Assembly: GCA_964187785.1 (NCBI GenBank)
Contig: OZ076409.1
Location: 10,108,001-10,172,000, forward strand
Reading direction: 5' to 3'
Origin: Amphiscolops sp. MND2022
Taxonomy: Eukaryota
Length of the DNA: 64,000 bases
Below are positions 20,966 through 63,976 of this stretch, piece by piece. How positions within the stretch are numbered: the stretch's first letter is position 1; every line of letters begins with the position of its first letter. Made by a program: the position numbers and the translations under genes. The notes beneath the pieces were generated by a model. It had not been told where the DNA came from. It made no database searches and saw nothing but the letters and a program-made list of their open reading frames with translations.

Positions 20966-20971
20966 TTGATA

Positions 20972-21644: not shown

Positions 21645-21885
21645 GGTGATTACCATTTATGGTATCCCGAGCGACTGAATTCTTTGAATTCTGATTCGAT
21701 CACTATTTATGGTATCCCAGGTGCCATTTTTACCAGGAAAATTGTTTGCATGTTCGACTTTTAACAAGGCGATAACCAATTATGGTATCCCGAGAGACTG
21801 GATTTCTTTAAATTTTGATTCGACCACCTTTTACGGTATTCCAGGCGCCATGTTTTTTCCAGGAAAATTGTATGCATGTTCGACT
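21645..21885. repeat. Two diverged ~123-bp direct repeats upstream of the ZnF-PolB start
   Basis: TATGGTATCCCGAG...CCAGGAAAATTG...GCATGTTCGACT at ~21658 and 21781; TA(T/C)GGTAT(C/T)CC occurs four times. Confidence 0.8.
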
Positions 21886-21942
21886 AACTTTTTTTGTTTC
21901 CGTATATTGACTGCTGGGCATTATAGGGGGGGGGAGGAACGG

Positions 21943-23370: not shown

Positions 23371-23499
23371 AACGATTTCCTAGGCTACTTTAAACAGAAC
23401 TCTGCATAAAATGTCTTTAAATTTCGACGTGGTTAGTAAGCTTTTGACAGTATTTGGTTAGATTGGTTAGTAAGCTTTTGACAGTATTTGTTAGATTGG

Positions 23500-24099: not shown

Positions 24100-24513
24100 A
24101 GTTGAATCGTCGACTTGGACAAGACCAACTGTTTGAGCGGTAGCGAATTTATCGAATAACGGCTTGAGTTTTGAACGCTAGTGAATCTACAGTTTTTTGT
24201 TTCTCACGGTGGTCCGATTTCCACATGGTAACAATGTGTTTTGAATTATTACATTGAGTCTATTTTGATTTTTCAGATGTTTTGAATTTTAACACCAGTG
24301 TCGTGGCCTGGGCGTTTGCTGTCTACTTGAAAGATCAACGTGGGTGGCAATGATCTTGATTTATCAGTCGGCGGTGCAAGCGTTTGTTGTTTACACGAAA
24401 GATTAAAGCAGGGTGACCAAACCTTGAACCATAAAAGCCCGCCCACCTCAGACATTGACCTTGCAATATTTACCAGGTTCTTCATACTTTTGATTTTGTT
24501 TCCAACATTCAGA

Positions 24514-24909
24514 ATGTTCTCTGGTGATTTTACTCTTGCTAAGGACGAGGATTTTGGAGACTATTACTGTGACTTATCAGAAAAATCCAACAGAATATTG
24601 CGAGCAACGGTGAAAACATACGAGCATACAGGAACCTACGTGTTTCTAAAACTCTTCAAAAAGAAGCCAGACGCCGAATTTGCTCTGGTTCAAAAAATCA
24701 CGTTGACAAAAGAAGAGTTTGAAATTCTACTGTGGAAAGGAAAATCAGTTCTACAACCGTCGAATATCAAAAAAGTTACAAAAAAGTGCAAAAAAATTAA
24801 GAAACCCTCATTTGTTGATTCTGTGGCGGAGGAGGATGACGGGGACAACGTAGACGGAGAAAACAAGGAGAATATTGATCCTAGAAAGTATGGTGGAAGC
24901 AATGTTTGA
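24514..24909 (+). CDS. PC4-like putative ssDNA-binding protein (131 aa)
   Basis: RATVKTYEHTGTYVFLKLF...ITLTKEEFEIL resembles the PC4 beta-sheet plus ISLT..Q/EW..L helix pattern; basic then acidic tail. Confidence 0.6.
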   Translation: MFSGDFTLAKDEDFGDYYCDLSEKSNRILRATVKTYEHTGTYVFLKLFKKKPDAEFALVQKITLTKEEFEILLWKGKSVLQPSNIKKVTKKCKKIKKPSFVDSVAEEDDGDNVDGENKENIDPRKYGGSNV

Positions 24910-25480
24910 GCGTTCTCCCGATTACCTTAAGCAATTTAGAAAAAACTTTCGCTTCTTTTTATTCAAGGAAAAACCCAAAGCTGGCGTGGACTTCCCATTA
25001 GATGTTGTTATTTCCATTGGCTTACACTCACCTGTGCATGATGGGCTTTGTAACGCTTTGCCAGACAATCACTATCATGTTTTGGCCCAGTGTTTTGGTG
25101 AAAATTATAAAGGGCAACCCAAAAGTTATTTATTACCATGTTTATATTCAACCTACGCCTTACTAATTGCAAACAGTGATGAAAAGGAAATATGTGGTGA
25201 AATTTTTGAAAAATTGGATCAAGCCGTTCAATACAATTGTGACCCTCCTAATCGAAACCCAAAGAAACTCTTGCCATCAATCTGTTTTTCTGTTCAAAAA
25301 TGTGACAAGGCTGTGCAAGTCAGCTCTGGGTTGAGTCAAGGAACAATACAACGCTTGGAAAATGTTATGCTTGGACCGTATGGTGGTCATTTCCTACTCA
25401 TTGCTGATATTTTCCAAACTGGTCACGGATCGCTTAATTTTGTGCCTGTACTAACCTTTTCTCTGAATGAAATTGTTTGA
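24890..25480 (+). CDS. Hypothetical protein with an HUH-endonuclease-like motif
   Basis: RFFLF...IGLH...HYHVLAQCFG; overlaps the stop of the PC4-like ORF; AATAAA just after the stop. Confidence 0.6.
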   Translation: MVEAMFERSPDYLKQFRKNFRFFLFKEKPKAGVDFPLDVVISIGLHSPVHDGLCNALPDNHYHVLAQCFGENYKGQPKSYLLPCLYSTYALLIANSDEKEICGEIFEKLDQAVQYNCDPPNRNPKKLLPSICFSVQKCDKAVQVSSGLSQGTIQRLENVMLGPYGGHFLLIADIFQTGHGSLNFVPVLTFSLNEIV

Positions 25481-25510
25481 GAATAAAAATGTTTGAAATT
25501 AAACATTAAA

Positions 25511-25951
25511 TTACATGAGAGTTTTTACAAAGCGAAGCAAATCAGTTTCAGAAATGTAAGAAATCAATGGATAATACGAACTTAACAAAAAATGAGCAAT
25601 ATAAATACAATACAAACCACACAAGTTTGAATTTTGATTTTGTAACGGCGTCTTTGTGGCATCTTTTAATGTCTGCTGAACTTGGATTGGTATCGCGGAG
25701 ATTCTTTTAGCAATATTAGGATAATGTAAAAATAGGTCTAGTCCAAGGGGATCTGCAAAGTTGAAAGTACCTTTCACGTTGCTCCAAACAATCCAATGTT
25801 TCCCAGCGCTGTTTGAGTTTTCTGAATTGACAATTACAAAAGTGTTGTTGGGTAATAGGATAGGAAACTTGTCTGCGGGATAAATTCCTCCAAACTTGTA
25901 TTTCAATCTTGGGCTGTTTTTTATTAGGTGGGCAATGTAATCTTCATCCAT
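25511..25951 (-). CDS. Adenain-like (C5 family) virion maturation cysteine protease
   Basis: GKHWIV, FADPLG, LQNQNSNLCGLYC (His-Asp-Gln-Cys); next to the major capsid gene. Confidence 0.93.
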   Translation of the reverse strand: MDEDYIAHLIKNSPRLKYKFGGIYPADKFPILLPNNTFVIVNSENSNSAGKHWIVWSNVKGTFNFADPLGLDLFLHYPNIAKRISAIPIQVQQTLKDATKTPLQNQNSNLCGLYCIYIAHFLLSSYYPLISYISETDLLRFVKTLM

Positions 25952-25954
25952 TTT

Positions 25955-27262
25955 TCAAGTGGTAGGGTTTAACATGACGTTTTTGGAGACTTTTCTATGA
26001 GAGTCAATGTAAATTGTTGATGCTTTTGCGCCCAACAGAAACACCTCAGTGTTCACTGCCAGCGCTGCTGAAAACTTCAACTCGAGCGAAATGGCAGCGT
26101 TAGTGAGCTCAGGATAAAGAAAATCATGAGATGCTTGTTGGGTGCTTGTCAGGTCAAACACCATTACAAAATGATTAGCATAGTCGGCGAAAGGAATTCC
26201 ATGTCCATGATGACCAAAGGCGAGAGCATCCATTGTTGACATGTAAACTCGTTTTAGATCATCTGTTGCCAAAGGATTTCCTGCACCAGGGTATCCATTC
26301 CGGTAAACAGTAACTTCGTTTAGGTTATGTTTTTGGTAATGAAATGGATTTGTGTCTTTTGAACCAAGAAAAGACGCATTACTGACGAGCGCCAAAGCGA
26401 ATCGTCGAATTGGTTCTCGACTGAAAACGTCTTCCTTACTCCAACTGCGACTACCTGTCGGAATGAGAAATGTTTTGGGTAGAACCTCTGTGTACCGATA
26501 CAGAGCTGGAGTTTTTGTCAGAGTTTTCTCTATGGCTATGAAAACCTGCTCAGAAACTGTCATTTTCCGGACGTAAAGATTGGCTTGGGTAATGGTAATT
26601 TTGTAATTTTTTGCAACGTCATCATGAATCAAAACAAACTCTGGTTTCGAACGGACAAAAGAAATTCGCAAAGTCACTCCACTCAGTAAATGTTTATCAC
26701 AAGAAAATACATCAGCTGCAACTTTTCCAAAAAATGTTAATTCTCCAGACTGTCTCGACTCCAATTCTCTGTTTGTAAATGGAGTTGTTGTACTGTTCCC
26801 AGGATGCTGCTCATATGTATATCCTTGGCAACGTAACCATGTATCTTTGGCTTCCTTGCCATTCGAATATTCGGTTTCAATAAAGGCCTTGTGTGCGTAA
26901 ACACCGTTTGCATTGGAAATTTTTATTCCATTAGCAGTAACAGTGCATTCGGAGAATAGAGAGTGTAATGTATTATTCACAAAAATAGGAGTGTCTGTTT
27001 GTGTTGGATCCGTTGCATCATATCGTAAGTCATTTCCATCGCTTTGTTTATTTTTGCATTTTATCTCGAGAAAAATTTTTTGTATGTCCAAAAAATTATT
27101 TCGGTCTCCTACAACTTCAAATTCCAATGTTAGTCCATTGGGGGAGTAAATCGGGCCAATCTTTTGTTCAAAGGAAGTGTCAAATGTAATCAAAACTGGT
27201 GATCGCTCAAAAATGTCGAGGGAACTATGTGAAGCTTCGAGTGGTAAAATATTAGGCAACAT
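25955..27262 (-). CDS. Major capsid protein (double jelly-roll, Polinton PY), 435 aa
   Basis: SSLDIF N-terminus, LEFEV, NNTLHSLFS...NG, LYVRK, NPFHY, FDLT motifs typical of Polinton MCPs; intact frame. Confidence 0.9.
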   Translation of the reverse strand: MLPNILPLEASHSSLDIFERSPVLITFDTSFEQKIGPIYSPNGLTLEFEVVGDRNNFLDIQKIFLEIKCKNKQSDGNDLRYDATDPTQTDTPIFVNNTLHSLFSECTVTANGIKISNANGVYAHKAFIETEYSNGKEAKDTWLRCQGYTYEQHPGNSTTTPFTNRELESRQSGELTFFGKVAADVFSCDKHLLSGVTLRISFVRSKPEFVLIHDDVAKNYKITITQANLYVRKMTVSEQVFIAIEKTLTKTPALYRYTEVLPKTFLIPTGSRSWSKEDVFSREPIRRFALALVSNASFLGSKDTNPFHYQKHNLNEVTVYRNGYPGAGNPLATDDLKRVYMSTMDALAFGHHGHGIPFADYANHFVMVFDLTSTQQASHDFLYPELTNAAISLELKFSAALAVNTEVFLLGAKASTIYIDSHRKVSKNVMLNPTT

Positions 27263-27625
27263 TTTTGACTTTTGAAAAGAAATCGGACCGACTTCTCTGT
27301 TTGCGTTTTGATTTCGTAATGGTTTTTCGTTTCTTTGAAGAACGTTTGCTTTTTCCACCAATCTGCTTCTTTATCGTCTTTTTCATAGCTGTTTTAGCAG
27401 CCTCACGTGGCGATTTTCGCTTTGCAATAACATCAAAGACCTCAGGGACACTTTGAACGAGCAATTCTTTGCCATTTTTTTTGCAGCAGGTAAAATAAAA
27501 TTTTTTGCAAAGGGTAAAGCCACTCGGCCAATACCGGCTGCCAGTGCACCAATTCCACTACCTCGTTGTCTGTTGTAACTGGCGAAATGGGGTAAATACA
27601 CTTGCTTTGAGTAATAGTCTTCCAT
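27252..27625 (-). pseudogene. Basic core-like virion protein, frameshifted at an A8 run (~27475-27482)
   Basis: YY..Q....QRGSGIGALAAGIGRVALP N-terminus, continued in the -1 frame by GKELLVQ...KQIGGKSKRSSKKRK; QxGxG and QIGG resemble adenain cleavage sites. Confidence 0.8.
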
Positions 27626-28492
27626 TAGGCGAATTTTTTAAATTTTAGGGTCAAAACAACTTGACCTTTACCACAAAAGGGTACCAGGATCCCAGTCTCT
27701 GTTCTGAGTTGAATGCTTATTGTTTGAATATTTTGAACCAACAGTTTCTTGTATTGTAAATCAAAAAATGATCTTGTTTCCAAATTCTGGGTTGTCACGA
27801 CCTTGCCACTTTCAACACGTTTCCCACTATCAATGATTCTCAAAACGGGTGCTTTTACGTCGCCCGTGTTTTGATATTCAATCAAATCAGTGTAAACAAG
27901 AATTAGACTAATGCCAGAAATTCAAATCCACCGGAAAGTCATTCACAACCCATCTACTGTTCAGGATGTCTTCGTTTCCTATATGAATACCAAAAGCAGT
28001 CTCTTTTCCCTTGAATCCAAGTAGGTTGGGGATGTTTCTGTTAGGAAAAGTGTAGCCAGCATATGCATCAAATTTAATTTCTAGGCCATTTTCGGTGGAT
28101 CTATGTTTACCGTCTTCCGTGAGTAAATTTACTTTTGAACGCATTTCAAAAAGTAGGTTGTTGATATGACTGTACATCGAAGGTCTTATCTTTAGTTTTT
28201 GATAATATGGAACAACTGGTTCAGAGTCAATTTCAATTTCCTCTGCTTTTTCTTCATCAATTTCGTCAAGGTTTTCTTCATCTTCCTTCTTTTTGGTAGT
28301 GTGAACGTAATAAAAAAAGTCTGTGTAAACGTTATTAATTTCCGAGGGAAAAATAATTTCTGATAGAGCAACACGCCAGTCGCCTTCCAGGGAAATATTT
28401 TGTGGGAGTTGATTTTTGAATGCTGCCAATGTATTGTCACCAAAAATTTCTAATGACGCTGTGGATAATAAATGAACTTCAAATTCGTCCAT
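27625..28492 (-). pseudogene. Minor capsid (penton-like, Polinton PX) protein, frameshifted near 27915-27922
   Basis: N-terminal FEVHLLSTAS..F.DNTLAAFKNQLP..I.LEGDWRVALSEI; C-terminal LVYTDLIEYQ.TGDVKAPVLRII...ISIQLRT..G..VPF...VLTLKF in the adjacent frame. Confidence 0.88.
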
Positions 28493-29477
28493 TTTTCTTT
28501 TTCACCAAAATCAATTCAGGCTGATAAAACTTGCCCAAGAGTTTTTCCTTCTCAGAGTCCAGTAAGTTGTAAGTTGGGGGATTGAGAGTTGCGATTTTTT
28601 CAATTTGAAAAATTTCGTCGGTAAAATTCTGTTTGTAACCTTTTTTGAAGGGTAAGTTTTCTTTTGACACTCTCACAAAGTCACCGACTCTGAATTTCGG
28701 CACTCGTAGCTGTTTAGTGGACTTGTAAGAAACCAGAGAAATCAAATGAGGTACATCTTTATCTGAAACCTTCTATGGAGCCAATCCTGTCACTCGGTTT
28801 ACTCGTGAATTTATGATGTCAACAAAGTCATGGAGTTTTTTGATGTATTGATAAGACCATCTCTTTTCCAAATGTTTATATATAATGTTTTTTAGATAAC
28901 GAATATTACGTTCTGCAAAAGCAGATTTTGTCTCACTATGAGTGCTGTAAATGTCAATGTTTTTGGAATCGCAGAACTGCTTAAATTCCCCTTTAAACTC
29001 TGATCCCTTGTCTGACCAGATTTTTCCGGGAATGGACTTTGTTATCATTCTTTTGAATGCTCTTGTTGAATCTGCTGCACTTTTTGTTTTCATTGGTTCA
29101 ACCCGTAGGAATCTCGATAGTACATCAACTGCAACTAGCAAGTATTTCACACCGTTGTTGTATTTTGCTAATTTGTCCATATAAGCAACATCTATCGACC
29201 AAATCTCATTGATTCTGTAAGCTTGAACCTTCAATCGTGGAAATTTTTTTCTGGGAGCGTGATATTTTGTATGAGCGTCTGTTTGAGCCAAAAATGTTTC
29301 CACTTTCCTTTTTGGAGGCTTACTAGCTTTTTTCAAGTTTTCAACGCTACCATAAGCAGCTGGACCTTGTGTGTAAAGTTTCTCGAGGGTTTTTCTTTCA
29401 GATTCCGAGAGATGTCCATATTTTCGATCCAGACGCTTTGCTTTTAGCAATTTCTTCAGATTCTTCGTTGCTGGCAT
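28479..29477 (-). pseudogene. int: Polinton rve (DDE) integrase with one in-frame TAG at 28773-28775
   Basis: WSIDV, LVAVDVLSR, WSDKGSEF, AERNIR; after LAP-TAG the frame continues into KFRVGDFVRVS...FKKGY..NFTDEIF...GKFYQPEL. Confidence 0.93.
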
Positions 29478-29982
29478 CTGATTCGTCTCGAGTGGGTTCT
29501 GCTCTCTTTCTTGTTGTACTAGGGTTCAAAATGTTTTTGGCGTTCCGGTTAGGCACTAAATTAGGATTTACCATCAATTCTTTAAGAATGATAGAGTATG
29601 AAGGATCAGTTAGGTTTTTGTTGGGTTGCTGCAGATTATAAAGAAATGTTGAGAGCGAAATTTTTGTGGAAATTTTGTTTACTGTAATATCGCCTGTTTC
29701 ACCAAAATCAATTGTTTCGGAAGATTCAATTTTGTTCAAAATTTCTCTCGTTCTTTGTTTTTGTGCCGCTGTGAGCATATCCAAAGACTTTAAAATATTT
29801 TCTTTACTGGTTTTTTCTTTCTTTTCTACTGTTGAGGGGTCCGGAAAAGTATTGTTTCTTTGCAGTAGAGTGAGAGACTTTGCCTTTTGTTCAACTTCTG
29901 GGTCTCTCAAAACTTGCAGTGTGGAGTGTTTCTGTTGAGTATAAAAACTTTTTGGGATAAGTACAAATTCTTGGGTGTTCAT
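29398..29982 (-). CDS. Polinton hypothetical protein (FVLIP N-terminal motif)
   Basis: ATG-initiated ORF packed between the integrase and the small conserved ORF, overlapping the integrase start. Confidence 0.7.
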   Translation of the reverse strand: MNTQEFVLIPKSFYTQQKHSTLQVLRDPEVEQKAKSLTLLQRNNTFPDPSTVEKKEKTSKENILKSLDMLTAAQKQRTREILNKIESSETIDFGETGDITVNKISTKISLSTFLYNLQQPNKNLTDPSYSIILKELMVNPNLVPNRNAKNILNPSTTRKRAEPTRDESDASNEESEEIAKSKASGSKIWTSLGI

Positions 29983-33111: not shown

Positions 33112-33470
33112 GTTGTACCAGTATTAGTCAATCCAGCTTTACAATTCAATTACAACAAAATTTCAAGGTTAGTACTTTCCAAACTTTCAGGCATTCAAAG
33201 AATAAACAAGAGTGTCTACGCTTTTACATGTACTTTCGCAAAAATCCGATTCCAAAAACGAATACAAAAAGAATCCAAAAAACGAATACAAAAAGAATCC
33301 GACCAATAATTTACTTTCGTAGTCAAAAGCCGAAGTATTTCCGAACACCAATTTGGAAGGACCCCTTCCTTTTAGGGATAGGTCCTAAAATTTCAGAGCA
33401 AGGACCCACCCCGTGAAAACCGAGGACCCCCCCCCCCCCCGTTGAAAGTCCGGCGGAAATCTTAACTACT
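33112..33470 (-). repeat. Right terminal inverted repeat (359 bp)
   Basis: Reverse complement of 16729-17084; ends CTTAACTACT. Confidence 0.96.
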
Positions 33471-45470: not shown

Positions 45471-46588
45471 AAGTGTTGTTTTCGATACACCTGAAGTTAC
45501 CAAAATAGTTCTACCGAAAGTTCTACAAAATTATGTTGTACCTGTTGGACCAGGGAACTGAACCAAAATGGTTTCCCTTTTTTTCCCCGCGTATCATATA
45601 ATACCGGGCGAGACTAAAGGGCCCCTTTTCATTTTTTTTCGGCATTGTGCGACATTTTTTGGAAAAAAATCCCCAAAGGGTTCCCCCTTTTAACTTTTTT
45701 TTGGAATTTTGAGACAGAATAGATGAAAAATCCCACAGGGTCCCCCTTTCAATATTTCAGCGTCGTGAGACGTTTTTCAAAAAAAAATCGAATGCTGTAA
45801 AAGAAATTACTTTGACACTTTGAAGTCCTTTTGCTATATTTGAGCCTTAGATAGGGCGCTGACTTTGGCCGGCCTGTGCAATTCGAATCGTTAAACAAGC
45901 CATAGAAGCTAATCTTTTTTGCGTTGAAGGAAACAGTGACTGAAAAAAATCCACGTTCACGGCTTTTCTCGTGAATCATTCATGAAGTTTTTGAAATCCT
46001 GCGTATGTATAAAGTTCGAAACACATTGTTCTTAAATTATGAAATAGACAATAAAAGCAAGATCATGCATTGGTTGGAGAAATATGAAACCATGAAGCAG
46101 AACCTGATCTGTCTTTCGTAAAAGATTGAATTAATTATGTTGACTTCAAATTTATTGAGATCAGCTGTGTATTTAAAGAAAGTCTCTTCTTTCCATCCTT
46201 TTATTGTGTTTTGACGTTGCTTGGTTGCAGAAGTTTGTAATGATGGAAGTTTAAACTTTTCAGGTTTGAATCCCTAAAAGACTCTTGTTGAATTGGACAC
46301 CTGGTCGATTGTCACTGTGGAACACAATTCATCAATTCAATTCCTCAATACTTTATGCAAAATAACGGCTTATACAGTTGACGATGGTTAAATGTTCAGT
46401 TTGTTCTTTGTTTATATAGACAAAAGGTTTTTGTTTCTGTAACTGTCCAAATCTCCCCATTCGTTCGAGTACGATACTCGCCAGCAAAAACAAACTTCAC
46501 AATCAGTTCAATGAGACAATTTTCCTCTACTGTTACAATTGAAAAAATGTTCAACTAAATTCAGGCTGTTTTTTAGAAGACAAGAGTT

Positions 46589-47509
46589 ATGTTTGGGGTT
46601 ATCAGCGTTTATGTAACATTTACTCTTGGTGCAAAAACAGTGACAGGAGATCCCAATACATTTCGTTCCACGGCATTCGAAGACCCAATAAATGGGAAAC
46701 GTTTGGACGCAGGAAAAGTTATTGAAACACGACAAGAAGCATCGAGTACAAAATGTGCCCTCGCTTGTTCTAAAAAGGATGACTGCCTTTCTTTCGGTTT
46801 CTGCGGGGAGAACGCCTGCGAATTGTACAACGAAGACATTTTTTCAACGAAGTATGGAGAGAATATTCTAGAAGAAGATTTAAGCTGCAATTATTTTGGG
46901 ATGAAGAAGGACTCTAAGCCAATATGCCAGCAAGATGGTGTGTTTGCACACATTCAGAGTGACGATGGAAACAGTGAGTTTTGTCCAATAAGTGGGAAGC
47001 GAGTTGATACAGAGTGGGGCCAATGGGGAGGGGAAGAAACAGTATACGACCCTCCTGATTGGAAGTTAGTAAACAGGAGCGAGACTGTTATTGAAGCAGC
47101 CCATGAGGGACTTCTTGACTTGGGAGATTCTGAGCGAGTTTTAGAATGGATCAAGTTTGTCGATCAAGAGATGACATGGGAAGATGCAAAAGCAAATTGC
47201 GAAACTTTAGGTGGAACTTTGTTCTCCAGAGTAGATGGAACTGAAGAGCAATTAGATTTCTTGCTACAGAAAATGAATCGAAACGTACATTGGTTGGGGA
47301 TCTACACTGAGGATCATGAAGTCTGGAAATCAGTGGCGGATGATGTCATTGAACCCACATCTTTGTATTGGAAATCTGGGCAGCCAAACAATGTAGGAAA
47401 CCAACAAAAATACGTCGCTAACCACCCTGCGTGGGAAAAAGTTCCCTTCACTGGTTTAGCTGATGACGAAAACTCAAAAGTCAAGGGGTCAATTTGTGAC
47501 ATGTTGTGA
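46589..47509 (+). CDS. Putative secreted PAN/Apple + C-type lectin domain protein (306 aa, intronless)
   Basis: Short hydrophobic N-terminus; KCALAC....CLSFGFC....CELY (PAN); MTWEDAKANC...GGTL...WLGI...W.SGQPNN...SICD (CTLD); AATAAA at ~47572. Confidence 0.88.
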   Translation: MFGVISVYVTFTLGAKTVTGDPNTFRSTAFEDPINGKRLDAGKVIETRQEASSTKCALACSKKDDCLSFGFCGENACELYNEDIFSTKYGENILEEDLSCNYFGMKKDSKPICQQDGVFAHIQSDDGNSEFCPISGKRVDTEWGQWGGEETVYDPPDWKLVNRSETVIEAAHEGLLDLGDSERVLEWIKFVDQEMTWEDAKANCETLGGTLFSRVDGTEEQLDFLLQKMNRNVHWLGIYTEDHEVWKSVADDVIEPTSLYWKSGQPNNVGNQQKYVANHPAWEKVPFTGLADDENSKVKGSICDML

Positions 47510-50360: not shown

Positions 50361-52959
50361 CACAGCTTCAAGTCCACCATTGCTTGGCCACTTGGCTGCA
50401 AATATGGTGCCATAGCTTGCTATGGGAAGATAGTATCCAAAAGGGCACCGACTTAGAAAAGCAGAACTTCCACCCCGCGGTAATGGGGAAACTATTTACT
50501 CCTCCTCCTAACAACCACAAAATGAAAAGTAACAGAACGCGTAACATAAGCAGAGCGTCGACCCTCCGGCAGCAAACAAATCAACCGATTTTCAGGTAAG
50601 TTTATGAACCAGATCTCAACATCGGGAACGAACGTTGAAAATCTTTGCAAGTTCCTGAGGATAACTCAACTCGGGAAAAACCTAATTGCAATGCCTATCT
50701 TTTTATCTTTAAAATGTTTAAACTTACTCGTTGGGGTGATAAATAACTATGGTCGCTTTTCCAGAGATCAAAAACCTGTGATGTGTTTCTACAAAAACCA
50801 GGTTTTTTTAACCAAGGAATGTATTTATAGGAGCGGCATTGCGAGAGTTTTATTTCGATTTTTGACGCAAAAACTCAAAATTCTTTACATTCAATCCTCC
50901 TTTGTATGCCATGTATGTACCAGTTTAAAATACAATTTGTTCCAAGATACCCCACCTTCAGTTACATGGTCCGAATTTAGCGGGAAAGCGTGCGAAAGCT
51001 CTAGAAAACTAATGCTCTCCTATGACGTCTAGTTATTGTAACGGCATCCTGTGATCAACGACGATTTTCGAAACTTTCAAGATTTGCTGAAAAATTCAGG
51101 GATGACGTGGCACTCGAACATGGTTTTCATTCGAATTACCTGCCCAGAGAAGCATTGAAAGCTGGAAGAGCAGACCCCGCGAAGCGGAGAGAACCGAAAA
51201 AGCGTAAGATGGACCTGTGAAACGGTCCGAGAGCCTAGCCTATGCGCTAAACTTCGAAAAAACCCACGGTGACAAGATGAAAACGTGTTGTGCCAGACAA
51301 CCCATATGTTGAGATCATTGCCATTCCCGGACCCATGGATGTGATCAGCCCAAGAACCGCCGGTGCTATGCCACCTAGACTCAACTGCTCGCCAAACACT
51401 GGATTTAACTCTTTTATGAGGCTGTTTAAGGATTTGTTTGATTAATTTGTTATTCGAGAGCTTTTGATGCTATTTACGATTCTGGACGATTCAATTGAGT
51501 TCTATGCACTAGCCCCGTTTTTATAGGCTGTTTAGACGGTGGTTGTGAAGAGAAAAAGCATAAAGCCCGTTATTCTCAGCAGTTAAAGACTGGAACAGGT
51601 CAGAGAGCATCCCTTAGGACGGTTGCCCCTGCTCGGGACCGGCTACCCACAGGAGGACAAAGTGAGCTGGTGCTACGGTGGTTTGTCCCGGACCATATCC
51701 ATAGTGTCAGTTCCTCTACTCCAATGTTTCGTCCCAAACGCTTAGCGCTTGCCGATACATGGAACTTCATTTTTTGGCCACCACAGAGGGATCGTCTATG
51801 GAAAGCTTTCCTGCATGGTTATTAAAATTTCTGACCCTCTGGTGTTTAGCGCCAAGACCGTTTCGACTCTGGGAGAAGCCAGAGTTTTCCTTTATTTTAA
51901 CGTTTATGCGTATTCCTAGCAGCTGGAACGAAGAAAGCCCAGAAAAACCCGAGAAAGATGCGTTTTCAGGTGTGAAAATAGCATTTTTCAGGTTGAAAAA
52001 CCCGTAAATGCATGTTGTGTGATGTCATGTTGTTAGCCCATCAACGGGTACATGTTTTGCAGGTTATGGCTACCGTAGCACGTGGCTACGGGTGGTTAAC
52101 CGGTTTATCTAGCCTTTTTCAGCTTTTTGAGCTATGCAAGACAGGTACCGACGGAGGAAAATCCATACTCCACCCGAGCGACGGGGAGGTGAAATTGAGT
52201 GCTATGGTTCGCCGTAACCCCTTTCTCGTGGAGACGTCCGTTATAGGTGAAATTTGGTGGACAGCTAGTACAACTCCTGACGAAGCTAACTGGTCTCCCG
52301 CAAGTCTCTAACTGGTCTGGATGTGGAGAAATTGCGTGGCGAAGGTACACGCCCTTGGAGCAGATGTGTCGTTCAGATGGGTCATGGTCCCTGAAAATTT
52401 TAAAATTGCGTCTTTTTTCATGGGGAATCATTGGTACAGAACAATCACACTTTTTGACGATGTAACGACACCCTATGGAACGCTTTTGAGCAAAGAAAAC
52501 AGAGTTTTTCCAAAAAACAGCGAAAATTCGTGTTTTTGAATGTTTTCTTTGGTTGGAGCACGAGTGCTCCGTAAGTCCAACGTAGCTCTGCCAGAATGAT
52601 GGCAAAAGCTGCCTCAAAGCCTGAGGGAGCAGAAAAAACAACGGGCAAGCGTTCCCGTTGCCCCTTTCAGGTGAAAAAGTTGGAATTTCAAGTGAAAAGG
52701 TGCGAAAAGTGAGAAAAAGGGTAAAGAACACCCTAAAAACACCACAGTGACTAGGTGTAGAAGCCTGGGGTACCGCCATAAAGTGGTTTCTCGAGCGAGT
52801 CACAACCCTAGGGTACCGGAAATACTTTCAGTACTTTCAGTAACTGTTTGGCTGGTATAGAAGCAGCAAGAAAGTGAAAATCTTGCAATATTGGCCGTCT
52901 GTGGTGAAGTTGGACATAGCGTGAAAAATTCATTGAACTCAAACCTTAATTATTTCCGC

Positions 52960-53234: not shown

Positions 53235-54825
53235 GCACTAAATTTGGCCGAACTCCCACAAAATCGGACTGTCCAATTGTTAGGGTCGGGTCATTAATTC
53301 CCGAACCCTAGCTAAAAACCGGTGGCATTTTCGTTACCACTGCCAAAATAAATGCTAGTGCAGAAATTTTGGTGGCCCTAGCGCTAACCAAAGTCGAGAA
53401 AAATCCTCCGACGTTTTGACCTCAGACAGCACCGACATAACCAAAAAAAGCCAAAACTGTAGGACCGACAGCGTCTTATACCTAACGGGCACGTCCAATT
53501 GAAGGGCTTGTGACAGTGCTGTGATTAGTGGGGCAACACGTTGACCCTACTTTGCCTGCCGTAACATTTCTAGTGTCGACCCTCTTAGCCGATTTGTGAG
53601 AATAGTGTCAAAAAGAGGACCGCTTTCTCTAAGAGCGTGTCGGTACTCAGCCGAAGTCCCAAATAAGCCAAGGCGTTTCAATTGGACTATCAAACCAGCA
53701 TAGTGACTGCCCACTGGCAACGCGTACCAAGTTTTGTGTCGATTAGTACGATAGTGATCGAGAAATAGACGGAAACGTACTGTACAAAAACGGGTAGAAA
53801 AAGGCAGTTTTTTCAAAATTTTTTTCGAAAGACCCGGATGCCTTAGTCGGAGAGTGAGAACAAATTGACGCTCACTGACGTAACTGGTACCAGTTGGCAC
53901 ACCGCTAGCGGAAAAACCAGACCGCTGACAATTGCCAGTGTCTAGAAGTTGTGTGATAAGAGTGCATTTTGACCCCTATTGGTATACAAGAGTACCGCAC
54001 GTCTGTACCCAGGAGAAAGTGTGCACAAGTCAAGGAACCCAAATCGGCGTTTACCATCGTGTACCTACATGTATGTACAATCTCCTGGCCAAATTTGAGC
54101 CAGATCCAACTGCTGAGTGACGAATACGAGCCACTTGTGTTTTTTGCGTAATCTGAGAAAATAGCGAAAGTGTGTAAACGTTCCGCACTGGTCTCCACAC
54201 ACACCTAATGTAAATCCAGGCTCTCTTTCGGAGTTTGTGGGTAAATACCTACTGCGTGTGCAAATTTGAGCTCGATACTACCGTTGGAAGTGTTTTCGAC
54301 CTTCCCGAAACGTGCTAAGGTCGAAAATATCTTAAGTCCTCACCGGAACGACTGGAGGTCGCATTCCCCCTGGGAACCCCTGAGGGCAGATTGCGGGAAC
54401 CGTAAGGATCTCCCGAGTTCCCGGAACTCCTGTTACGGAAGGTGACCCTTGCAGGGGTGTTGCGGACACGACTTCGCGTGACCACATAGCCTATAGGTTG
54501 TCGGATTGGACGTCATCGGTACGTTGATTCAAATCACTGCGCGGTCGTCCGATTGATAATCATGTTCTGGACCGGTGTAGCGGCCATTGTCAAGCTGCTC
54601 ACGCGCGGGATGCCGAGAACTAGCGAGTCCAGCACCAGCAATGCAGTAGACACCGATGATGCGCAAGAAACGAGGTCGATCCAACTAGAGGACTCTAGCA
54701 CTACTGGCGAACTGAGCCTAACGGCATGGTCCTCTGTGGATTCCTTAGTAACCGGTTCTTCCTTTTCAGAAGCAATGAGTGATTGTGTAACTGCCGATCA
54801 GCAGTGACGAGAGGAGCAGAATGCC

Positions 54826-57220
54826 ATGACTCTCAATCGTGGGGATTCGTCCGTATCCAATGAGCTTATCCGAACGGGACAGTGGATCCAAGACAATCGG
54901 GGTGAATTGGTATCGCCTCAAACCGCGAGGTTCTGGCCCAACTCAAATCAAACGACAGCGCAGGTGACCTCTACGCGTGATGGGTGCTTTAGGGCACCCC
55001 GAGACGATGATAGCACAGCCAGTGTCGACACTGCGGCGGTCTTGGAGAATATGACCTACGTTGGTGGCATGAACTATGCTAAATACCGCCTCGAGGCAAG
55101 CCGAGCCAAAAGCGCTGGCAAACAGAAGAAGACACGCCCTCCCACATTGTGTGTGCAAGAAGAATTGGCCGTAACAGTGCCTCTTGTTGTCGCGATGGCA
55201 CCACGTCGAGCACCTCTTCACGACGTTCCTCGGCGTACAGAGCCGTTGAGGAGGCGGCAGCAGCAAGGACCGCGATGCTCAAAGCGGAAGCTGAAGCCCA
55301 GCGGGCCTTGACACGTTTAGCCGACACCCGCGCTGAGTGCAATGAACAACACCAAGCTATCACTTCGGAACTGGAGGCTATGCAGACCTCGGTAAAGGAA
55401 AGCTTGAGGCCTGCCACCCAACAGACAACAGTGCAAGCAGCCAAGGTCGACGCCTTGGGGTATCGTCTGGAAGAGATGAAAGACATGCTCATCCAACGCG
55501 AACTGCGCATGGAAGTCCAGATGGTGGAGCTTAACAACCAGATGCATACCCTGAGCGCTGCGTCCCGCACAGCGGCACCTGCAGATAAGCAACCCAAGGC
55601 CGCCGAACCCATCGCATCCACCAGCAAGACAGTGCCTATGCGCACTCCTAATCAGTCGATCACGTTGAAGATGAGCCCCAAGTCTGAACCCAGAGTATCC
55701 AAACCGCCACCGACAGGCAAGAAGACCAACAAAGTGCTTGTGTGCGCACCCAACCCACTTAGTAGCGTGTCGCTACCGCCGGCACCAACATTTACTCGCA
55801 CCCAAAATCGAGCAGTAGATCCCATGACGACTACCTCATCAACCGTCGATCTAACTGACACCAATGCAACAGCTGGCTCACGCGATAGCAGCGCCGAAGA
55901 CGAGGTCTACACCACAGCCAGAAGCGGAACCGCAGGTATCACCTCAATGTTCCTCACTGCGAGTGAGGGAGTCCCCACTGGTGACCCTTGCGCCAGTAGC
56001 ACTCGTAAGAGGGACGACGTAAATGGTGAACTGTCTATGCAAGCCACCAGGGAAAGTCGAGACAATTCTCCCGCCCCTAGTGAGAAAGGAGAAGTGGTCT
56101 CCCAAGAGCAGTAACTTTTCACTGCGGCAATTTCCAAAGCCATGTCCAAAAAGTTAGCCCCATCGCTGGCCGGGAGTGACCCGACGCAGGCCAGGCCCAG
56201 TGTCTACCGAGGTTCAAAGGAGGGTTCCATTGATGATCCTAGTTATACGTCGCTACCTCCAACGCACTCAGGCCAAAGCCACCCCCGATGACAAAGCATG
56301 GAGAATCATTGGGCACCTAGAAGGTGAAGCCAGAAACTACATCATCAACAAGGCCGAGTCTGAAAGAGACACCCCGGAAAAGGTCTTCGACTTGTTAGCT
56401 AGTCGATTCGGAACGGGAGGTAATCGCATGCAAGTGCGTCAGGCCTTCGCAACGCGACAGCAATCCGACAGGGAAGACTGGATGCAGTATTTAGATGCAT
56501 TGGAGGGGCTGAGAAGCCAAGGCTTCCCTGGTGAGTCCGTCACAACTAAACGTTATGAAATCTTGCAGCGCTTTATCGAAAACGTTCGTGACCCAGCCTT
56601 GCAGAGGGACTTCTCCATTATCTATGCGTCCGAATCCACGGTCACCGAGCCTCCCACTGTTGAATCATTGCGATTTACAACACGGCAACTGCAACGTACT
56701 CAACAAAGGTCGGCGCCTTATAACCCTCGATACGCCATGAGGTCAAGGCCTCATCCTTTCGCACCACTACCCCCCAACAAGACGTTGCTACCTCAAGGGG
56801 TGATGCCTCCCCCACCTGCGAGCAATGCCCGCTAAACCAAGCAGCGGCACAACCTGCCGTGCGTTTACCCTTGGGTGCTTGCTTTAATTGTGGCCAAACT
56901 GGACACTCTGCTCGAGACTGCCCCAATCGCGACGAAGCTCGTAAACCACCGGCTGCCCCCGAGCCTGAAGGCGTGAAAGTCACTGCCGAAGATGTGGCTG
57001 ATGGTATTCTGGAAGGCTGTCCCGGAATTCGTCAATGCAGCAACTGTGGAATTTTCGATCATGCAGATATGCAAAGCGGTGAGCACTCTAACTCTCCGAA
57101 ACCAAGTGACGAATTCACCTACAACCGATGGGCCGAGGTCGAGTCGGGTGGCGTTGCTGCGCACACAGTACCCCTAGAGGATGATCGCGTATTAATGCTA
57201 CATCCGGCGGAACCGCCAAC
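54826..57220 (+). pseudogene. gag: gag: coiled coil, capsid-like domain and CCHC zinc knuckle
   Basis: KAWRIIGHLEGEARNYI...LASRFG; CFNCGQTGHSARDC at ~56880; frameshifts and stops between fragments. Confidence 0.9.
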
Positions 57221-57221
57221 A

Positions 57222-58436
57222 TTCTACACCCCGCTAACAACTACTTGCGGTGCCAAGCAAGTCCAAACCTGCTGAGAGCCTACCACGTTCGACCCACAAG
57301 GACGGACGTCGATCTCCATTCACCTGATGTTAGCCGCCGAACAACTGCGGAGGCCAACGTTAACCCTGGCGAAGCTCTGGGTTGAACTATCCCTCCTCTA
57401 TAGACGAGTTGAGTTGCCCCGTCCCAAAGAGTGGTACGCCCCTGGAGATTCTGAAACCCTGACGACGTATTCCCCAGTGCCAATCTGTGCCACCATGGAC
57501 GGTGTGGACGTAAAGTTTGAAGCCTGTGTGGTGGTGGATGTGTTCCCACCTGGCATATGTCTGGGTCCCCAAGAACTGAAATGCTACAATATCAACCACC
57601 AGGAATACACTGGTGAGGCGCGTATAGACGAACGTGCGTCACTTGTTGTTTCTTTCGTAGTGCCCCATGCGGCACCTATCCCACTACATGGACTGGTGGA
57701 CACCGGTTCAGGCGTATCGATATTGACATTCTCCGCCTTCAGTCGAGTGGGTGCTCGGACCGGCACTGTCCTAAAGCCCTATCAAATCGACTTGTACGCT
57801 GCTAACGGAAAAACAATAAAGACCTTTGGACTTGCCGAGCAGATTCGTTTTCAATTAGGAGGGTACGAACTTGAAACCAACTTTGTCGTGGTGGACGATG
57901 CAATGGGTGTGGAGGACTTTCTGCTAGGCCGGAACTTCCTCCGTTCCTATCAGGTCCTGGTAGATCTCACGTCCATGAAGATTGTTGTGCGAGCGCCCGT
58001 GAAGCCCGTTTGGCATCATGCACACGCTCAGGAAGGTGATACTTCGTTAGCCACCCCGGTTGCCTTGGACAGCAATCTAGTCCTACAGCCTTTCGAGCGC
58101 ACAGTGGTTAAAGCCAAGCTCATCACTGACACGCTTGAACCATTGATCTTTCAAAGTGTAGCCTTGAACGCAGCCATTGCTGATGCATCGTTGCACAACG
58201 TTGTGTTTTTAGAGGACATGGTCGCCACTGTCAGCGAGTCAGGCTTGGTGTTCGTCAACCTGATGAATCTAACAAGTAACCCTCAACGAGTGCGGAAGGG
58301 AAATCGACTTGGCCATGTAGTACCTGTCTCCTTGGTCTACCAGGCCATCCCTCAGCAAACGCCAGACAACCCCGAAACTGAGGTCAATAACGACCATCTC
58401 TCGTTTGCAAATAGAGTTTATGAGCAAATGAACTAA
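57222..58436 (+). pseudogene. Pseudo-protease-like segment, aspartic protease and degenerate dUTPase-like linker
   Basis: LVDTGSGVSIL (GAC at 57699), FLLGRNFL; downstream VNLMNLT...VRKGNRLG; in frame with the gag knuckle across TGA 57273. Confidence 0.88.
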
Positions 58437-58478: not shown

Positions 58479-59925
58479 TTGTCTTCAACTGAGCCAACCG
58501 AAGCAGGTCTCTCGGATCGTGAGATACGCAAGCGCACGGACCCGGAGCTCATGGCTCCCATACCGGGACCTGAGTCACAGCTTAAGGATTTCCAGGACCT
58601 CTGGAGCCCAGCGGCCTGTACAGCGCTTGAGAACATTCTTACAGAGTTTGATGATCTGTTCATGAACCACAAAGCTGACATTGGTCGTTGTACCATAGCT
58701 AAGCATCCAGTGGAGGTGGAACTAGGCGCCATACCTCTCCGCGAGGGTGCAAGGCGCATGTCTCCTGAAAAAGCCAAACGGGCTAATGAGGAAGTGCGCA
58801 ACTTGCTTGTATTGGGAATGATCCGACCTTCCCTGTCCCCTTGGGCAAGCGGAATTGTGTTGGTGAAGAAAAAGAACGGCGAGTTACACTTCTGCTGTGA
58901 CTTCCGCCCCCTGAATGAGGTCACTGTAAAGGATGCGTATCCATTGCCTCGCATCGATGAAAGCCTAGCTAGGCTGGGCAAAGCTAAAATCTATACTAGC
59001 ATAGATCTAGCTTGGGCATTTTGACAAATTCCGGTTCGGAAAGATGACCGCCAAAAAACCGCCTCTGCCTGTGAGTTAGGATTGTTCCAGTGGAGACGCA
59101 TGTCCTTTGGCATGTGCAATGCCTCTGCCACCTTCCAAAGAGCAATAACACGAGCACTACGCAACATCGTGAATCGTGAAGGTAGCATGGTTATGGCCTA
59201 CATAGATGATATAGTCATCGCCACGGAAACCGTGGAAGACCACATGATACGTCTCCGTGAGGTGTTCAATTGCTTGCGCGAGGCTGGCTTCAAGATGCGA
59301 GTTGCTAAGTGCGATTTCATGAAGTCCAAAATCAAGTACCTCGGTCGTGTAGTGTCCGCGGAAGGGATAAAGCCCGACCCCAAGGCCGTTGCAAAGCTCC
59401 GCGACTGGGAAGTTCCGCGTAACAAGACAGAAATGCAACGCTACCTAGGCTTTGCCAATTATTACCGCGAATTCATTCCCTGGCATGCCAAACTGGTGGC
59501 CCCCTTGCATGCCATCACTGGCCTCAACGCTACCTTTGCTTGGGGATCCGAACAACAGCTTGCCTTAAATGAAATAAAAAATGCGCTCATCGATGCCACC
59601 GCGCTGGCGCAACCGGATTCCGAAGGCGAATTTGTACTGGATACCGATGCTAGTGCTGTTGCCATTTCTGGCATCCTCCACCAGTGGCAAGGCCCACCTG
59701 GAGAGCGACGTTTACGTCCAATACTCTATGATAGCAAGAAGCTCACCGCGACGCAAGCGAAATAAGGAGCGCCTAAACTGGAAATGTACGCTGCTTATCA
59801 CTTCATTGTGAAGAATCACAGCTACCTTTGCCCGCGCAAGTTCACGTTGAGAGTGGACAATCAGGCCCTCTCGTGGCTCAAAACCCCGAGCGCAACATCG
59901 CAATGCCGATGGATTGTCCAAACGA
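58479..59925 (+). pseudogene. pol: Reverse transcriptase and RNase H
   Basis: SPWASGIVLVKKK, DFRPLN, YPLPRID, FGMCNASATFQR, YIDD, YLGR, TDAS, DNQAL; stops at 59022 and 59763; short deletion near 59885. Confidence 0.96.
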
Positions 59926-61730
59926 ACAAATGATTACCCATGGAGGGAACAACAATTCGAGAGGCTGCCCCCAGTAGCAGAGCGCTGGAATTTCCTATCT
60001 CAAGAGGATTACGACCAGCTGCCCACAGCACCCTGGTTCGATCTACAAGGCCGGATTATCCCGAACCATCCTGAGCTACCTGAGCATCTCAAAAACCTGC
60101 AGCCCACACCTCCTGATATTGTCCAACGCGTGATCCGCCGCGCACAACGAAACCAACGGCAGAAAGCACTGGAAGCACCCTTGCCGCAACCGCCACCCCC
60201 AGTTCTTCATGCTCACGAAGACTTCTATCCCGACTATCCAGAGGACTGGATTGATGTGACTGAAGAAGCTCATCATGATTATCTGCTGCCCACGCACATT
60301 ACCAACGTACCCTCGCATACCACCTACGACCTGGCAAACACTGATGGAATGACCATGCAAAATGTCCCAGGTCACATCAGGCAAGCCGCACTGGCTGTTC
60401 ACAGTGTGGGTACCGAGCTGCACGAGCATACCCACACGGTTCATGGCATCAAGGACCTACTCCTCGCACAGAATCGAGACGTGCATGTTCTTTTACTCAA
60501 AAAACTGGTGAATGGGAAAAACAACGATCAAGATATATTTCCCGAGGACGTACGTGCATTTGCCCGGAACTATTTCAAGCAAAAGAAGGAGCTACTTTTT
60601 CTAAATTCCAACGGCGTGCTCTGTGTGAAATACCCCCCAGTGCAACGTCCACTTCATGAACGCCCTTGCATGATTGTGATGCCTCAGTTATATCAACATG
60701 AAATTCTCTTCCGTGCCCTCGATGCTATGGGTCACCAAGGCATCGGCAAAGTCGTGGCACGAATACAGGAACGCCACACCTGGCCTGGCATTCGCCGCAC
60801 TGTGGGCGAGTACGTGAGCCAGTGTCTCACGTGCCCGTATGTTCGAGACAAACCTGGGGACGTTCGGTTCCATCTCAAGAATATTCAATACGGATACTTC
60901 AATGAATTGGTCCAGTACGATCATATGAAGCTTTGCCCCACCGATGATGGAAACACGGGAATCTTAGTCATTATTGATCACTTGTCTAAATTTGCCGAGG
61001 CAGTCCCTTGTAGTCATGACGAGTATGACGCAATTACCACCTCGCGATTGCTCTTGCAAAAATGGTTTGCCCGTCATAGCACCCCTACCCGGATGCAATC
61101 GGACAATGCTCCGAATTTAACAGCGGAAGTCTCTAATGAATTTATGAAAGCCTCACAGGTCACGAAGGTGACCTCCACTGCTGGTCACCCCCGCACACAA
61201 GGTCTAGTAGAACGCCAGAATCGCACGCTACTCACTTTGTTGCGTGTTTTCTGCTCGCGACGAATGCGCGATTGGGATCGTCACTTGGACGAGGTCCTAG
61301 GTGCGTATAACTCCACACGTCACGCAACCACAGGGTTCTCACCTTACATGTTGACCAGGGGCACAGAAAAAGCGATACCCCTTACGTACCTGTATCCCGA
61401 GTTTGCCTCACGGTCCTTCCCCACACATGACGCTTACGTGGATCATGTACTAGCACGTCTCCAAGAGATCCACGACCTGGTGCGTAGAAACACGCACCAA
61501 GCTCAGCTGCGGCAAAAATTAAAGTACGACCGCGCAATACAGGCCAAAGCCTAAAAACCTGGCGACTTGGTCCGGGTCTTTTGTCGATACGTTCCTCAAA
61601 AAGGTTCACCGAAACTGATGCGAGCTTGGCGTGGCCCGCATCGCATTTTTCATACTCTGCAGGATGGGCGTGTTTACATCCTGGACACAGGACAAAAGGT
61701 CCACTTTGAACGTTTGAAACCTCATAATAG
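59914..61730 (+). pseudogene. int: Long RH-IN linker and integrase (degenerate HHCC, DDE, GPY/F-like)
   Basis: GHQG...WPGI...CLTC; QYDH, QSDN, LVERQNR; WRGPHRI beyond the in-frame TAA at 61552. Confidence 0.95.
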
Positions 61731-63976
61731 TGGCCCCGTGGAATCCGCCGCCACCCCATTAGATACCGGTGACATCGCCGTGGTAATGGATCCTGAGCCC
61801 GAGCGCTCCGTAGAACCTATTGATGATGATTGCTCCAAGCCCTCCTATCACTCTGAACAATTACTTTCAGAGGCCTCGGATGTGTCGCTACCCTCTAGGC
61901 AACGCCATTGGATGGACACTAGATTGCGCACAAAGCTGCGCGCGGGAGGAACCCGGCAGCATTATCAACAGTTCGATTATTCCACGTCTGAGACCGACGA
62001 TGAAACGTCGGACGCGATGCTCCTCATTCCTACCCATTCCCTACAACTGGTCCAGACACAACCTGCAGACATCGAAGCCCCCGCCGTGCCTGCTATTTCG
62101 TCAGACACATCTATGTTCGACTGCCTTCCGCAGTTATTCTCCGATCATGAGCATAGGCGCTCACCCTCACCACAGTTATCACCGTCAGATGATCCACCGG
62201 AGCTATCCCCATCGGGTACCTCTGCTCCGCTGCTGACGCATCCTTCCTTTACCGACTACCTCAGTAAATACCCACTTTGGCCCAATCACGCCAAAGATAC
62301 CAGCGCCCCCACTTCTCGTCCGCCTACACCCCCAGCGGACCAAGCCCCACCACCATTACCCAAACCACCCACCGCTCCTTCTGTTAAAAGGGGGAAGGGG
62401 AGACCTCGGAAAAAGACAAGGGCGACAAGGGCACCCCGTTCACGTAAACCTTCGGCAAAGGCAGCGTCCAAGGTCCACGCGCCAATTTCAGACACGCAAA
62501 CGGGATCCCAACATAGATACCAATTGAGGCATAAACGGCAGCCCAGATACAAATGTGGCACCTGTGGCTTGCGCGACTGCGCATGCGTGCTAGCTGTGCA
62601 CGAGAACCGGGAGGTTCCCATTGGAGCCCGGGGAGTTCTCCCGGAGGGACGACACAATGCTGAACTGGTTCATCGTATCGTGGTGCGAGCGGAAAAGACC
62701 TTCATTGGATTAGAGCGAACCGAGAATTATTCAGCAGAAACCATCTTGCAGCGAATCGGCGTACCGGGCGTTGCGAAGGCACCATGTCCTCAATTTAAGG
62801 AATGGACAAATGACGGCAAAGGCCTAGAATTCACGCTGGCAATCGTGGTACCCCCAGTGCCCCCTAACGTCGTGTTTGGTCCGTTCAACTTTGAGCGGGA
62901 GCCAGTGCAAATGGCCAGATGCACCACTGCTGATCTACGGTTGGACCGATACGGAGTCGAGGTAGAACCAGGAGGCGAGTATAGTCCAGCCCCGCACTGG
63001 TGGTTGTTGGTGACTGCACCGCGTGAAGTTGCGCTAGTGGAACCACGGCATTTGCTGCTTTGCCTGGAACGTTTGAGGACTTCCACAACGGAACACCTAC
63101 TCTTGTGCTTCCACCTTATTGACTGGTATCGTGGGAAAGTAAAATTTGGCTGGTGGTTGGAGCTGATCATAACGTGCTTCACCAACAACCACCGCATTCG
63201 TCTATTGGACGAATGGATCCACACTTTTGAGGAACCCCCGCTAGTGAGAGCAGCATTGAACACGCTGGACACATGGGTCCGAGCAAGTGTGGATAACAAA
63301 GCGTTGCCGCGCTCGGTGTGGCAGGATTTAGCTGCAATACAGGGTCGCACCGGGTCGCACCCCACGCGTATGCTTACCCCCTGATAATGGACCGGGTCGG
63401 GAAATAGTGTATCCCGGCAGCCTGAACATGGTGGAATACATTTCTTATGACACCACTGACTTTTTGCAAGTCGAAAGGCATGTAGCCCTGGCGTGCCCGG
63501 CGGATTTAGAAACCAGCTCGGCAGCACTGCGCTACGTGTTGCGGGATTGCGGCAAGGAGCAAGTATTTTCACTGCGCCCCCGGATAGGAGAATTTCTGAC
63601 CCTGACTCCTGCAATCACCAATAAACCCACCCAGACCATACACTTGCTAATCACCCGTGCGAATCAGCGCGCCCCGCTAATAGCAGATGATTTCCTATTA
63701 TGCATGCGACAATTGACGGCATGGTTAGAGGACAGGGGTATTGCCCGAGTCCATTTTCCGATACTGGACCCCGAAAGACCAGTATTCTCCCTGACCAACC
63801 TGTAAAAGGCACTAGTGGATTTGTTCGTGGACACGAACATTCACGTGTTGCTACACAATCGCGTGTACGTGTCTATACTCGGCATAGAGATAGGTGTTAA
63901 ACCACCTGAGTGCCATCTCTCAAGTTATTCTTGCTTGAGCGAAAACTCAAGTAAATTCGGTTTTAATTTCTGTTAG
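61731..63976 (+). pseudogene. Post-integrase tail: disordered linker, AT-hook, CxxC-CxC motif and tandem macrodomain-like domains
   Basis: KRGKGRPRKK, RYKCGTCGLRDCAC; 63431-63860 follows the TARG1/OARD1 macrodomain pattern; the frame is restored by removing a 10-bp duplication at 63342-63361. Confidence 0.72.

Follow-up and report, generated by a model that had tools for sequence, protein, structure and literature searches.

Structural modeling has confirmed that the Pol protein of a Gypsy element carries a long tail ending in two TARG1-class macrodomains in tandem (M1 and M2). The module is real, conserved, and in frame, and represents a case of domain capture by Gypsy elements. Its carrier is a Ty3/Gypsy LTR retrotransposon of ~19 kb, as seen from the order Gag, protease (PR), reverse transcriptase (RT), RNase H (RH), and integrase (IN) and from its TG...CA LTRs. 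A decayed representative occupies the window (the whole stretch of 64,000 nucleotides that was analyzed, G000:C1:10108001-10172000, in a eukaryotic assembly of 1.07 Gb) from ~54.7 kb to its end, where Pfam recovers a CCHC Gag, protease, RT, RNase H, and integrase in this order. The features of this copy are as follows.

51511..51759, + strand: remnant of the 5' LTR (its 3' third), matching the LTR of L061, a natural copy, at 68% identity across 252 nt
54709..57275, + strand: broken Gag region with a CCHC zinc knuckle at 56877-56927 (tblastx to L031; PF00098, E 3.9e-8; PNMA weak)
57681..57944, + strand: aspartic protease (PF13975, E 6e-7)
58863..59890, + strand: RT and RNase H, interrupted by stops and one frameshift (PF00078, PF17919, PF17917)
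60682..61730, + strand: integrase with H2C2 finger, core, and C-terminal GPH segment, GPH at 61633 (PF17921, E 4.5e-12; PF00665)
61731..62385, + strand: Pro/Ser/acidic low-complexity linker, 37-66% amino acid identity between families
62386..62412, + strand: AT-hook-like basic motif, G-K-G-R-P in the window and R-G-R-P in natural copies
62554..62586, + strand: C-x2-C-x4-C-x-C motif, present in 10 of 11 tandem-family tails, pLDDT ~35
62662..62859, + strand: ordered beta/alpha extension preceding M1, pLDDT 74-96, beyond the range aligned to C6orf130
62860..63213, + strand: predicted macrodomain M1, TARG1-class, with loop 1 deleted (model of the window frame, structure search)
63214..63433, + strand: conserved helical spacer, which carries the window frameshift at 63342-63361
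63434..63862, + strand: predicted macrodomain M2, TARG1-class, with a stop at 63803 in the window (L017 model, structure search)

Similarity in the leader continues downstream of the 5' LTR remnant to 53846. A first-pass annotation of the window had described a Gypsy Pol with a tail of ~750 aa, which is borne out by the Pfam domain order and by a natural copy with a tail of nearly the same length (see below). All motif positions that it quoted are found as stated, with WWLLVTA at 62998, DWYRGK at 63121, and IRLLDE at 63196 upstream, followed by TTDFL at 63452, CPADL at 63494, SSAAL at 63515, LITR at 63647, and DPER at 63767. It missed an in-frame stop at 61552, between the integrase core and the tail, and likewise passed over the AT-hook-like and Cys motifs, the sister lineage with one macrodomain, and the families of this genome with canonical macrodomains. 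The element is cut by stops and frameshifts, and gag/pol is broken at several more places besides the tail, where the frame shifts at a tandem duplication of a 10-mer and a TAA stop interrupts M2. Given the stop at 61552 and the multiple gag/pol breaks, the window copy is dead. The codon matching 63803 is a sense codon in 27 of 29 other close copies (one is unreadable and one, L002, shares the stop), and thus the breaks are lesions of the window copy. L002 (C1:10332242) is a 97% identical copy located 160 kb from the window that has both the same stop and the same duplication, which suggests a local duplication after decay.

Several other parts of the window are recorded here as observations. 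Between the protease and RT, the stretch at 58060-58330 resembles a dUTPase by eye, and amino acids 214-294 of another element, L072, give a weak match to PF00692 (E 0.0013). An unusually long insert of ~270 aa (59900-60680) separates RNase H from the zinc finger of integrase, and the insert of the sister lineage discussed below is longer still and acidic. On the - strand, 17405-29525 holds open reading frames (ORFs) of 1188 and 471 aa and a third ORF, located between inverted arms (16729-17084 and 33112-33470) that form 326-nt perfect terminal inverted repeats. By eye, we take this to be a Polinton/Maverick-like element whose three ORFs are presumably DNA-polymerase-B-like, capsid-like, and integrase-like, respectively. 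Positions 1-14140 hold nested direct repeats (~0.9, 3.15, and 5 kb) that are 96-100% identical and show a strong AT skew, and an intron-less ORF of 310 aa at 46577-47509 (+ strand) resembles, by eye, a secreted protein that combines PAN/apple with a C-type lectin.

Elsewhere in the genome, natural copies have a single uninterrupted Gag-Pol frame of 3,100-3,300 aa. Searching the genome with the final domain produced 3,396 first-look candidates, of which 150 were scored, and 33 of these 150 (by hand count) have open frames of >3,100 aa that run through the macrodomain region rather than ending Pol before it. One of them, L031, is a single frame of 3193 aa with the knuckle at 814, protease at 1082, RT at 1480, RNase H at 1706, and integrase at 2116-2285, and its tail of ~760 aa starts at the GPH motif (aa ~2434) and closes the protein at aa 3193. 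Its AT-hook gives a weak match to PF02178 at aa 2679 (E 1.3, under the Pfam cut-off), and Pfam finds no chromodomain at E<=10 across the whole frame, whose terminal folds are macro. This copy, located on C13, spans 18.9 kb, carries a second large ORF downstream of pol, and has LTRs of 722 nt with TG/CA ends that are 100% identical, and therefore its insertion is recent. This copy also has a purine tract before the 3' LTR and a TGG-type primer site ~15 nt inside. A target-site check of one copy revealed only a 3-nt match, where Ty3/Gypsy elements typically leave a duplication of 4-6 bp, with flanks of 60-68% AT, which is near background.

Two further families in the genome have tails that are 54% and 41% identical, each with many frames of 3,000-3,300 aa, so that three families, whose tails share 41-55% identity, carry the macrodomain tail as an in-frame continuation of integrase. 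The AT-hook-like motif is present in 10 of 11 tandem-family tails, which are the same 10 that have the Cys motif, a possible zinc site; both sister tails lack the two motifs. A profile search of 1.84 billion representatives yielded 411 matches at E<=0.001, and all of the 150 matches listed are fragments of the tandem module, with identity down to 31%. At strict cut-offs, the diverged homologues P0062, P0073, and P0034 were not found in G000. A tblastn search of a phage collection gave zero matches, and none were listed for the L031 tail among RNA records, a result with no bearing on expression.

A second large ORF (ORF2) is located between pol and the 3' LTR, at L034:679-2103 and 2211-4001+, immediately beyond the end of the window, and at L060:932-5223. 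It encodes ~1,400 aa, in two pieces in L060, and its conserved blocks are 48-62% identical between families. Searches of Pfam, the ESM Atlas, and the PDB gave no credible match for ORF2, a match to designer PPR proteins being the sum of weak repeats. The motif spacing of its middle part recalls, as we read it, SGNH/GDSL esterases.

The macrodomains are not apparent from simple sequence searches. Pfam Macro (PF01661) has no match in the window tail, the L031 tail, or 73 homologues, and PDB sequence searches with a single sequence or a 9-sequence query gave nothing useful. When a profile of the 73-row alignment was compared with 177,635 PDB sequences, there were five matches at E<=10, all of them TARG1/C6orf130 at E ~0.02. 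The ESM Atlas ranked a Macro cluster first (score 0.90), which serves as a lead only. Structure models were more informative. For M2, the last 454 aa of natural copy L017 were modeled with AlphaFold2 (pLDDT 83.6), and the model matches TARG1 over M2 only, both in Foldseek (E 1.8e-8, TM 0.82) and in a VIA-align comparison with 4J5R (Z 17.4, rmsd 2.1, 136 residues aligned), with DarG and Poa1p as the next matches. For M1, the window's own open frame at 62662-63339 was folded alone (pLDDT 90.4); its first match is C6orf130 (Z 13.1, rmsd 2.5, 115 of 152 residues aligned), and the top eight Foldseek rows are all TARG1. Both the fold class and the tandem second copy that the first-pass annotation had read from motif spacing are thus recovered. 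Profile comparison matches M1 to M2 at 92% (E 6e-7) and the single domain of the sister lineage to M2 at 99%; against the canonical domain, the values are 97% for the sister domain, 96% for M2, and 10% for M1.

The pocket that holds ADP-ribose in TARG1 has been remodeled. Residues were counted in alignment A3, with the TARG1 register taken from sequence and profile alignments. M2 has Arg at the K84 position in 37 of 40 rows (Lys in 2 of 40) and Ala at G43 in 39 of 43, where loop 1 of TARG1 reads G-A-G-I-A and the window reads SSAAL. Loop 2 of M2 is D-P-E-R, not G-C-G-L-D, with Asp at G121 (35/37), Glu at G123 (31/36), and no D125. These counts agree with the loop replacements (SSAAL for GAGIA and DPER for GCGL) noted earlier in the window. 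D20, which we take to be the adenine-site Asp, is kept by M2 in 35 of 42 rows, and invariant Arg, Asp, Glu, and His residues are found near the M2 pocket. D20 is not kept in M1, which has loop 1 deleted, Ala (22/35) or Ser (10/35) at the K84 position, and a second loop that reads D-x-Y-R-G-K (Asp 30/37, Arg 30/34). In L017, M1 is neutral (pI 7.2) and M2 is acidic (pI 5.4).

Mutational data for TARG1 help to interpret these changes. Catalysis depends on K84 and D125 (passages of PMC9411070), and the G43E, I44E, and G123E substitutions each abolish ADP-ribose binding and activity, even though the G123E protein is folded, is more stable than wild type, and retains RNA binding (passages of PMC5928194). 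The related protein SCO6735 is active without K84 or D125 (passages of PMC9411070), and thus the loss of catalytic residues is no proof of inactivity. Nevertheless, the change of K84 to Arg, the Glu at G123, and the replaced or deleted loops make it quite improbable that either domain binds ADP-ribose in the canonical manner. The suggestion in the first-pass annotation that the module is non-catalytic is therefore probably correct, given that TARG1 with the G123E change loses binding (passages of PMC5928194).

Related elements offer some insight into how this arrangement came about. Among the 120 RT-IN relatives listed, P0291 (whose best PDB match is Ty3 Gag-Pol, E 5e-96) and P0294 (with its last part out of frame) end in one remodeled macrodomain, without an AT-hook or Cys motif, and this domain shares D-x-x-R-G-K with M1. 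The P0291/P0294 lineage is sister to the tandem families in both an RT-RH tree (96.7/95) and an integrase tree (96.5/99), each with 15 rows and rooted on more distant Gypsy proteins. The sister relation rests on these trees and not on an earlier RT tree, a quick search in which 4 of 36 rows were dropped for short coverage. The best match of the lineage in G000 is only 32%, which indicates that it comes from another genome. Because the sister proteins have a single remodeled domain, remodeling would have come before duplication, and the simplest reading of the history is capture, then remodeling, then duplication.

Macrodomains also occur in other LTR elements of this genome. A Pfam Macro search recovered three loci that look host-like and another three matches that sit within long element frames. 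The matches in element frames align to TARG1 at E 1e-27 and retain K84 and GCGLD. Four more regions have TARG1-type domains after integrase, after protease, or after RNase H. In the follow-up search, 150 of 1,449 candidates were scored, and the following families were opened.

L070/L072 (C12:44821580): domain after integrase, canonical in L070 (E 1e-27 to TARG1)
L075: TARG1-type domain after integrase, partly changed
L073: domain after integrase, independently degenerate with the same motifs lost
L074: TARG1-type domain after protease, at the end of the Gag-PR frame
L076: TARG1-type domain after RNase H, before integrase

Since near-canonical domains occupy at least three polyprotein positions in these other families, the TARG1-type fold is a recurrent cargo of LTR elements in G000. 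The RTs of other macrodomain families are 25% and 35% identical to that of L031, and the remodeled clade forms a long branch of unresolved placement in the macrodomain tree (88.8/53). The idea that L070/L072 is the direct ancestor receives no support from this tree or from its RT, which is only 25% identical. The nearest non-element relatives of the canonical domain (P0225-P0241) include proteins with DNA-ligase Pfam domains (PF01068, PF04679, PF16759) and a protein of a crayfish-associated tombus-like virus.

Any proposal for the function of the remodeled pair must account for its conservation. Ten pairs were compared for dN/dS, a check proposed with the first-pass annotation, and most are saturated in M1/M2, including most between-family pairs; the four unsaturated subfamily pairs, all uninterrupted copies, give 0.04-0.11 across M1 and M2. 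Such strong purifying selection shows that the module is maintained. The linker, which is the least conserved part of the tail, gives 0.23-0.27 where measurable. It is true that the window copy is dead and that the L073 family has independently lost the same motifs, as might be expected of functionless cargo that decays while remaining in frame only by its position. However, the difference in dN/dS between the module and the adjacent linker, together with residues that have become invariant even among homologues as distant as 31% identity, largely refutes this idea and renders it very improbable. With a pocket that looks closed and a sequence that is strongly conserved, the fold probably has a new job, most likely the gripping of a host protein. 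A role in opposing host ADP-ribosylation, which the first-pass annotation had also put forward, could be exerted either through binding to a host transferase, which would be blocked, or through a changed chemistry at M2. The near-canonical domains in at least three polyprotein positions of other families suggest that a common pressure acts on these elements. Proteins of the TARG1 class also inhibit the DarT transferase through interaction, an effect tested on inactive mutants, and SCO6735 is functional despite lacking K84/D125 (passages of PMC9411070 for both). M2 also keeps D20 and its invariant residues near the pocket. Yet the diphosphate loop is filled by acidic side chains, including the binding-blocking G123E change, loop 1 is lost in M1, and the pairs measured are under strong purifying selection without a sign of fast surface change. 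The closed pocket in particular makes this role less likely, and we consider it rather improbable overall.

By analogy with the SARS-unique domain, the pair might bind a translation factor or the nucleic acid of the element (RNA or cDNA). RNA binding by TARG1 takes place away from the pocket (passages of PMC5928194), M1 has an invariant Y-R-G-K loop, and chains of the SARS-unique domain (6yxj, bound to Paip1, and 8ufm) appear in both the M1 and M2 fold lists. These matches reach only Z 6.8-7.7, far below TARG1, and concern the fold only, and the neutral and acidic pI values of M1 and M2 in L017 also argue against such a role, which seems unlikely. The proposal that we prefer, though the case for it is about evenly balanced, is that the remodeled pair acts, without catalysis, as a module of the integrase tail that binds proteins, probably as a tether to chromatin or a host factor. 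A Gypsy ancestor would have acquired a macrodomain of the TARG1 class at the C-terminus of Pol, and its pocket would have been remodeled to a D-x-x-R loop. In one branch, the domain was presumably duplicated and joined by the AT-hook-like and Cys motifs, although the order of these events might differ. To judge from TARG1 mutagenesis, the resulting pair would no longer bind or hydrolyze ADP-ribose in the usual way and would instead serve as a protein-binding module on a long flexible linker behind integrase. With the AT-hooks gripping DNA, the pair would most likely anchor the integration complex to a nuclear host factor or to chromatin. In MAGGY-type Gypsy elements, the chromodomain that directs targeting has the same position behind integrase (passages of 10.1101/2021.11.30.470311). 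Position alone does not imply tethering, however, because other families carry macrodomains after protease or RNase H. Also counting against a tether are the lack of AT-hooks in the sister lineage, the AT-hook Pfam score below cut-off, and the adenine-site Asp that M2 keeps in most rows. The distribution of copies bears on scale: among the 150 matches, the 77 copies of P0004, a related young family, on seven chromosomes of known length are uniformly distributed (KS p 0.39; distance to ends p 0.44), and therefore no centromere- or telomere-scale targeting is seen at the level of chromosomes.

With these findings, the domains captured by the integrase tails of Gypsy elements gain a new class. 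The related data provide a natural series that includes an intact enzyme-type domain, a single remodeled domain, and a tandem remodeled pair. The pair itself is a conserved pseudo-macrodomain, invisible to Pfam and with a putative ligand, in one of the most abundant young families of the genome. ADP-ribosylation restricts RNA viruses and phages, and whether it restricts retrotransposons as well can be tested directly in this host, since several LTR families carry intact versions. A broader scenario, which is offered tentatively and may well prove wrong, is that TARG1-class macrodomains are recurring mobile cargo of LTR retrotransposons in this host group that first served as erasers against an ADP-ribosylation-based anti-transposon defense, and that one lineage was turned into a tandem pseudo-enzyme reader that steers integration, the macrodomain equivalent of the chromodomain in chromoviruses. 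Some transposon proteins carry the label OARD1-like in automatic annotations, and so the canonical form may already be on record. The literature search, which lay outside Repbase, subscription journals, and supplements, found no paper on macrodomains in Gypsy elements, and passages of six sources (10.1101/2021.11.30.470311, PMC6431247, PMC7729036, PMC5408684, PMC8195603, PMC7217437) describe no retrotransposon macrodomain.

Among known systems, the closest structural relative of both domains is TARG1/OARD1/C6orf130 (PDB 4J5R, 2LGR), which belongs with DarG, Poa1p, and SCO6735 to the ALC1-like class and has the same order of strands and helices. M2 keeps the D20 and D37 positions. The predicted M1-M2 pair differs from TARG1 in that identity is only 13%, K84 and D125 are absent, both glycine loops are replaced or deleted, the domains are in tandem, and they are fused to a retrotransposon Pol. 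The tandem macro folds of the SARS-unique domain (Mac2/Mac3) in coronavirus nsp3 are likewise part of a viral polyprotein, but they represent another macro class and virus group and provide an analogy only. They bind nucleic acid and, to our knowledge, do not bind ADP-ribose. The Paip1 complex of this domain is taken from a PDB title (6yxj). Fish epsilon-like endogenous retroviruses also have a macrodomain on an LTR retroelement (macro-domain ORFs in passages of PMC4977317, citing Basta et al. 2009), but these are Retroviridae with occasional extra reading frames. Large elements with a single long polyprotein, captured domains, and an ORF after pol are described for planarian Burro (passages of PMC6431247) and bdelloid ORF3s (passages of PMC5408684), and the word macro is absent from the main text of both. 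The chromoviruses (MAGGY-type) offer a parallel in architecture, because they too have captured a fold of the reader type downstream of the integrase GPY/F segment in a Gypsy element. The window element differs from them in that it has a macro fold in place of a chromodomain, a tail of ~750 aa, and a targeting role that is putative.
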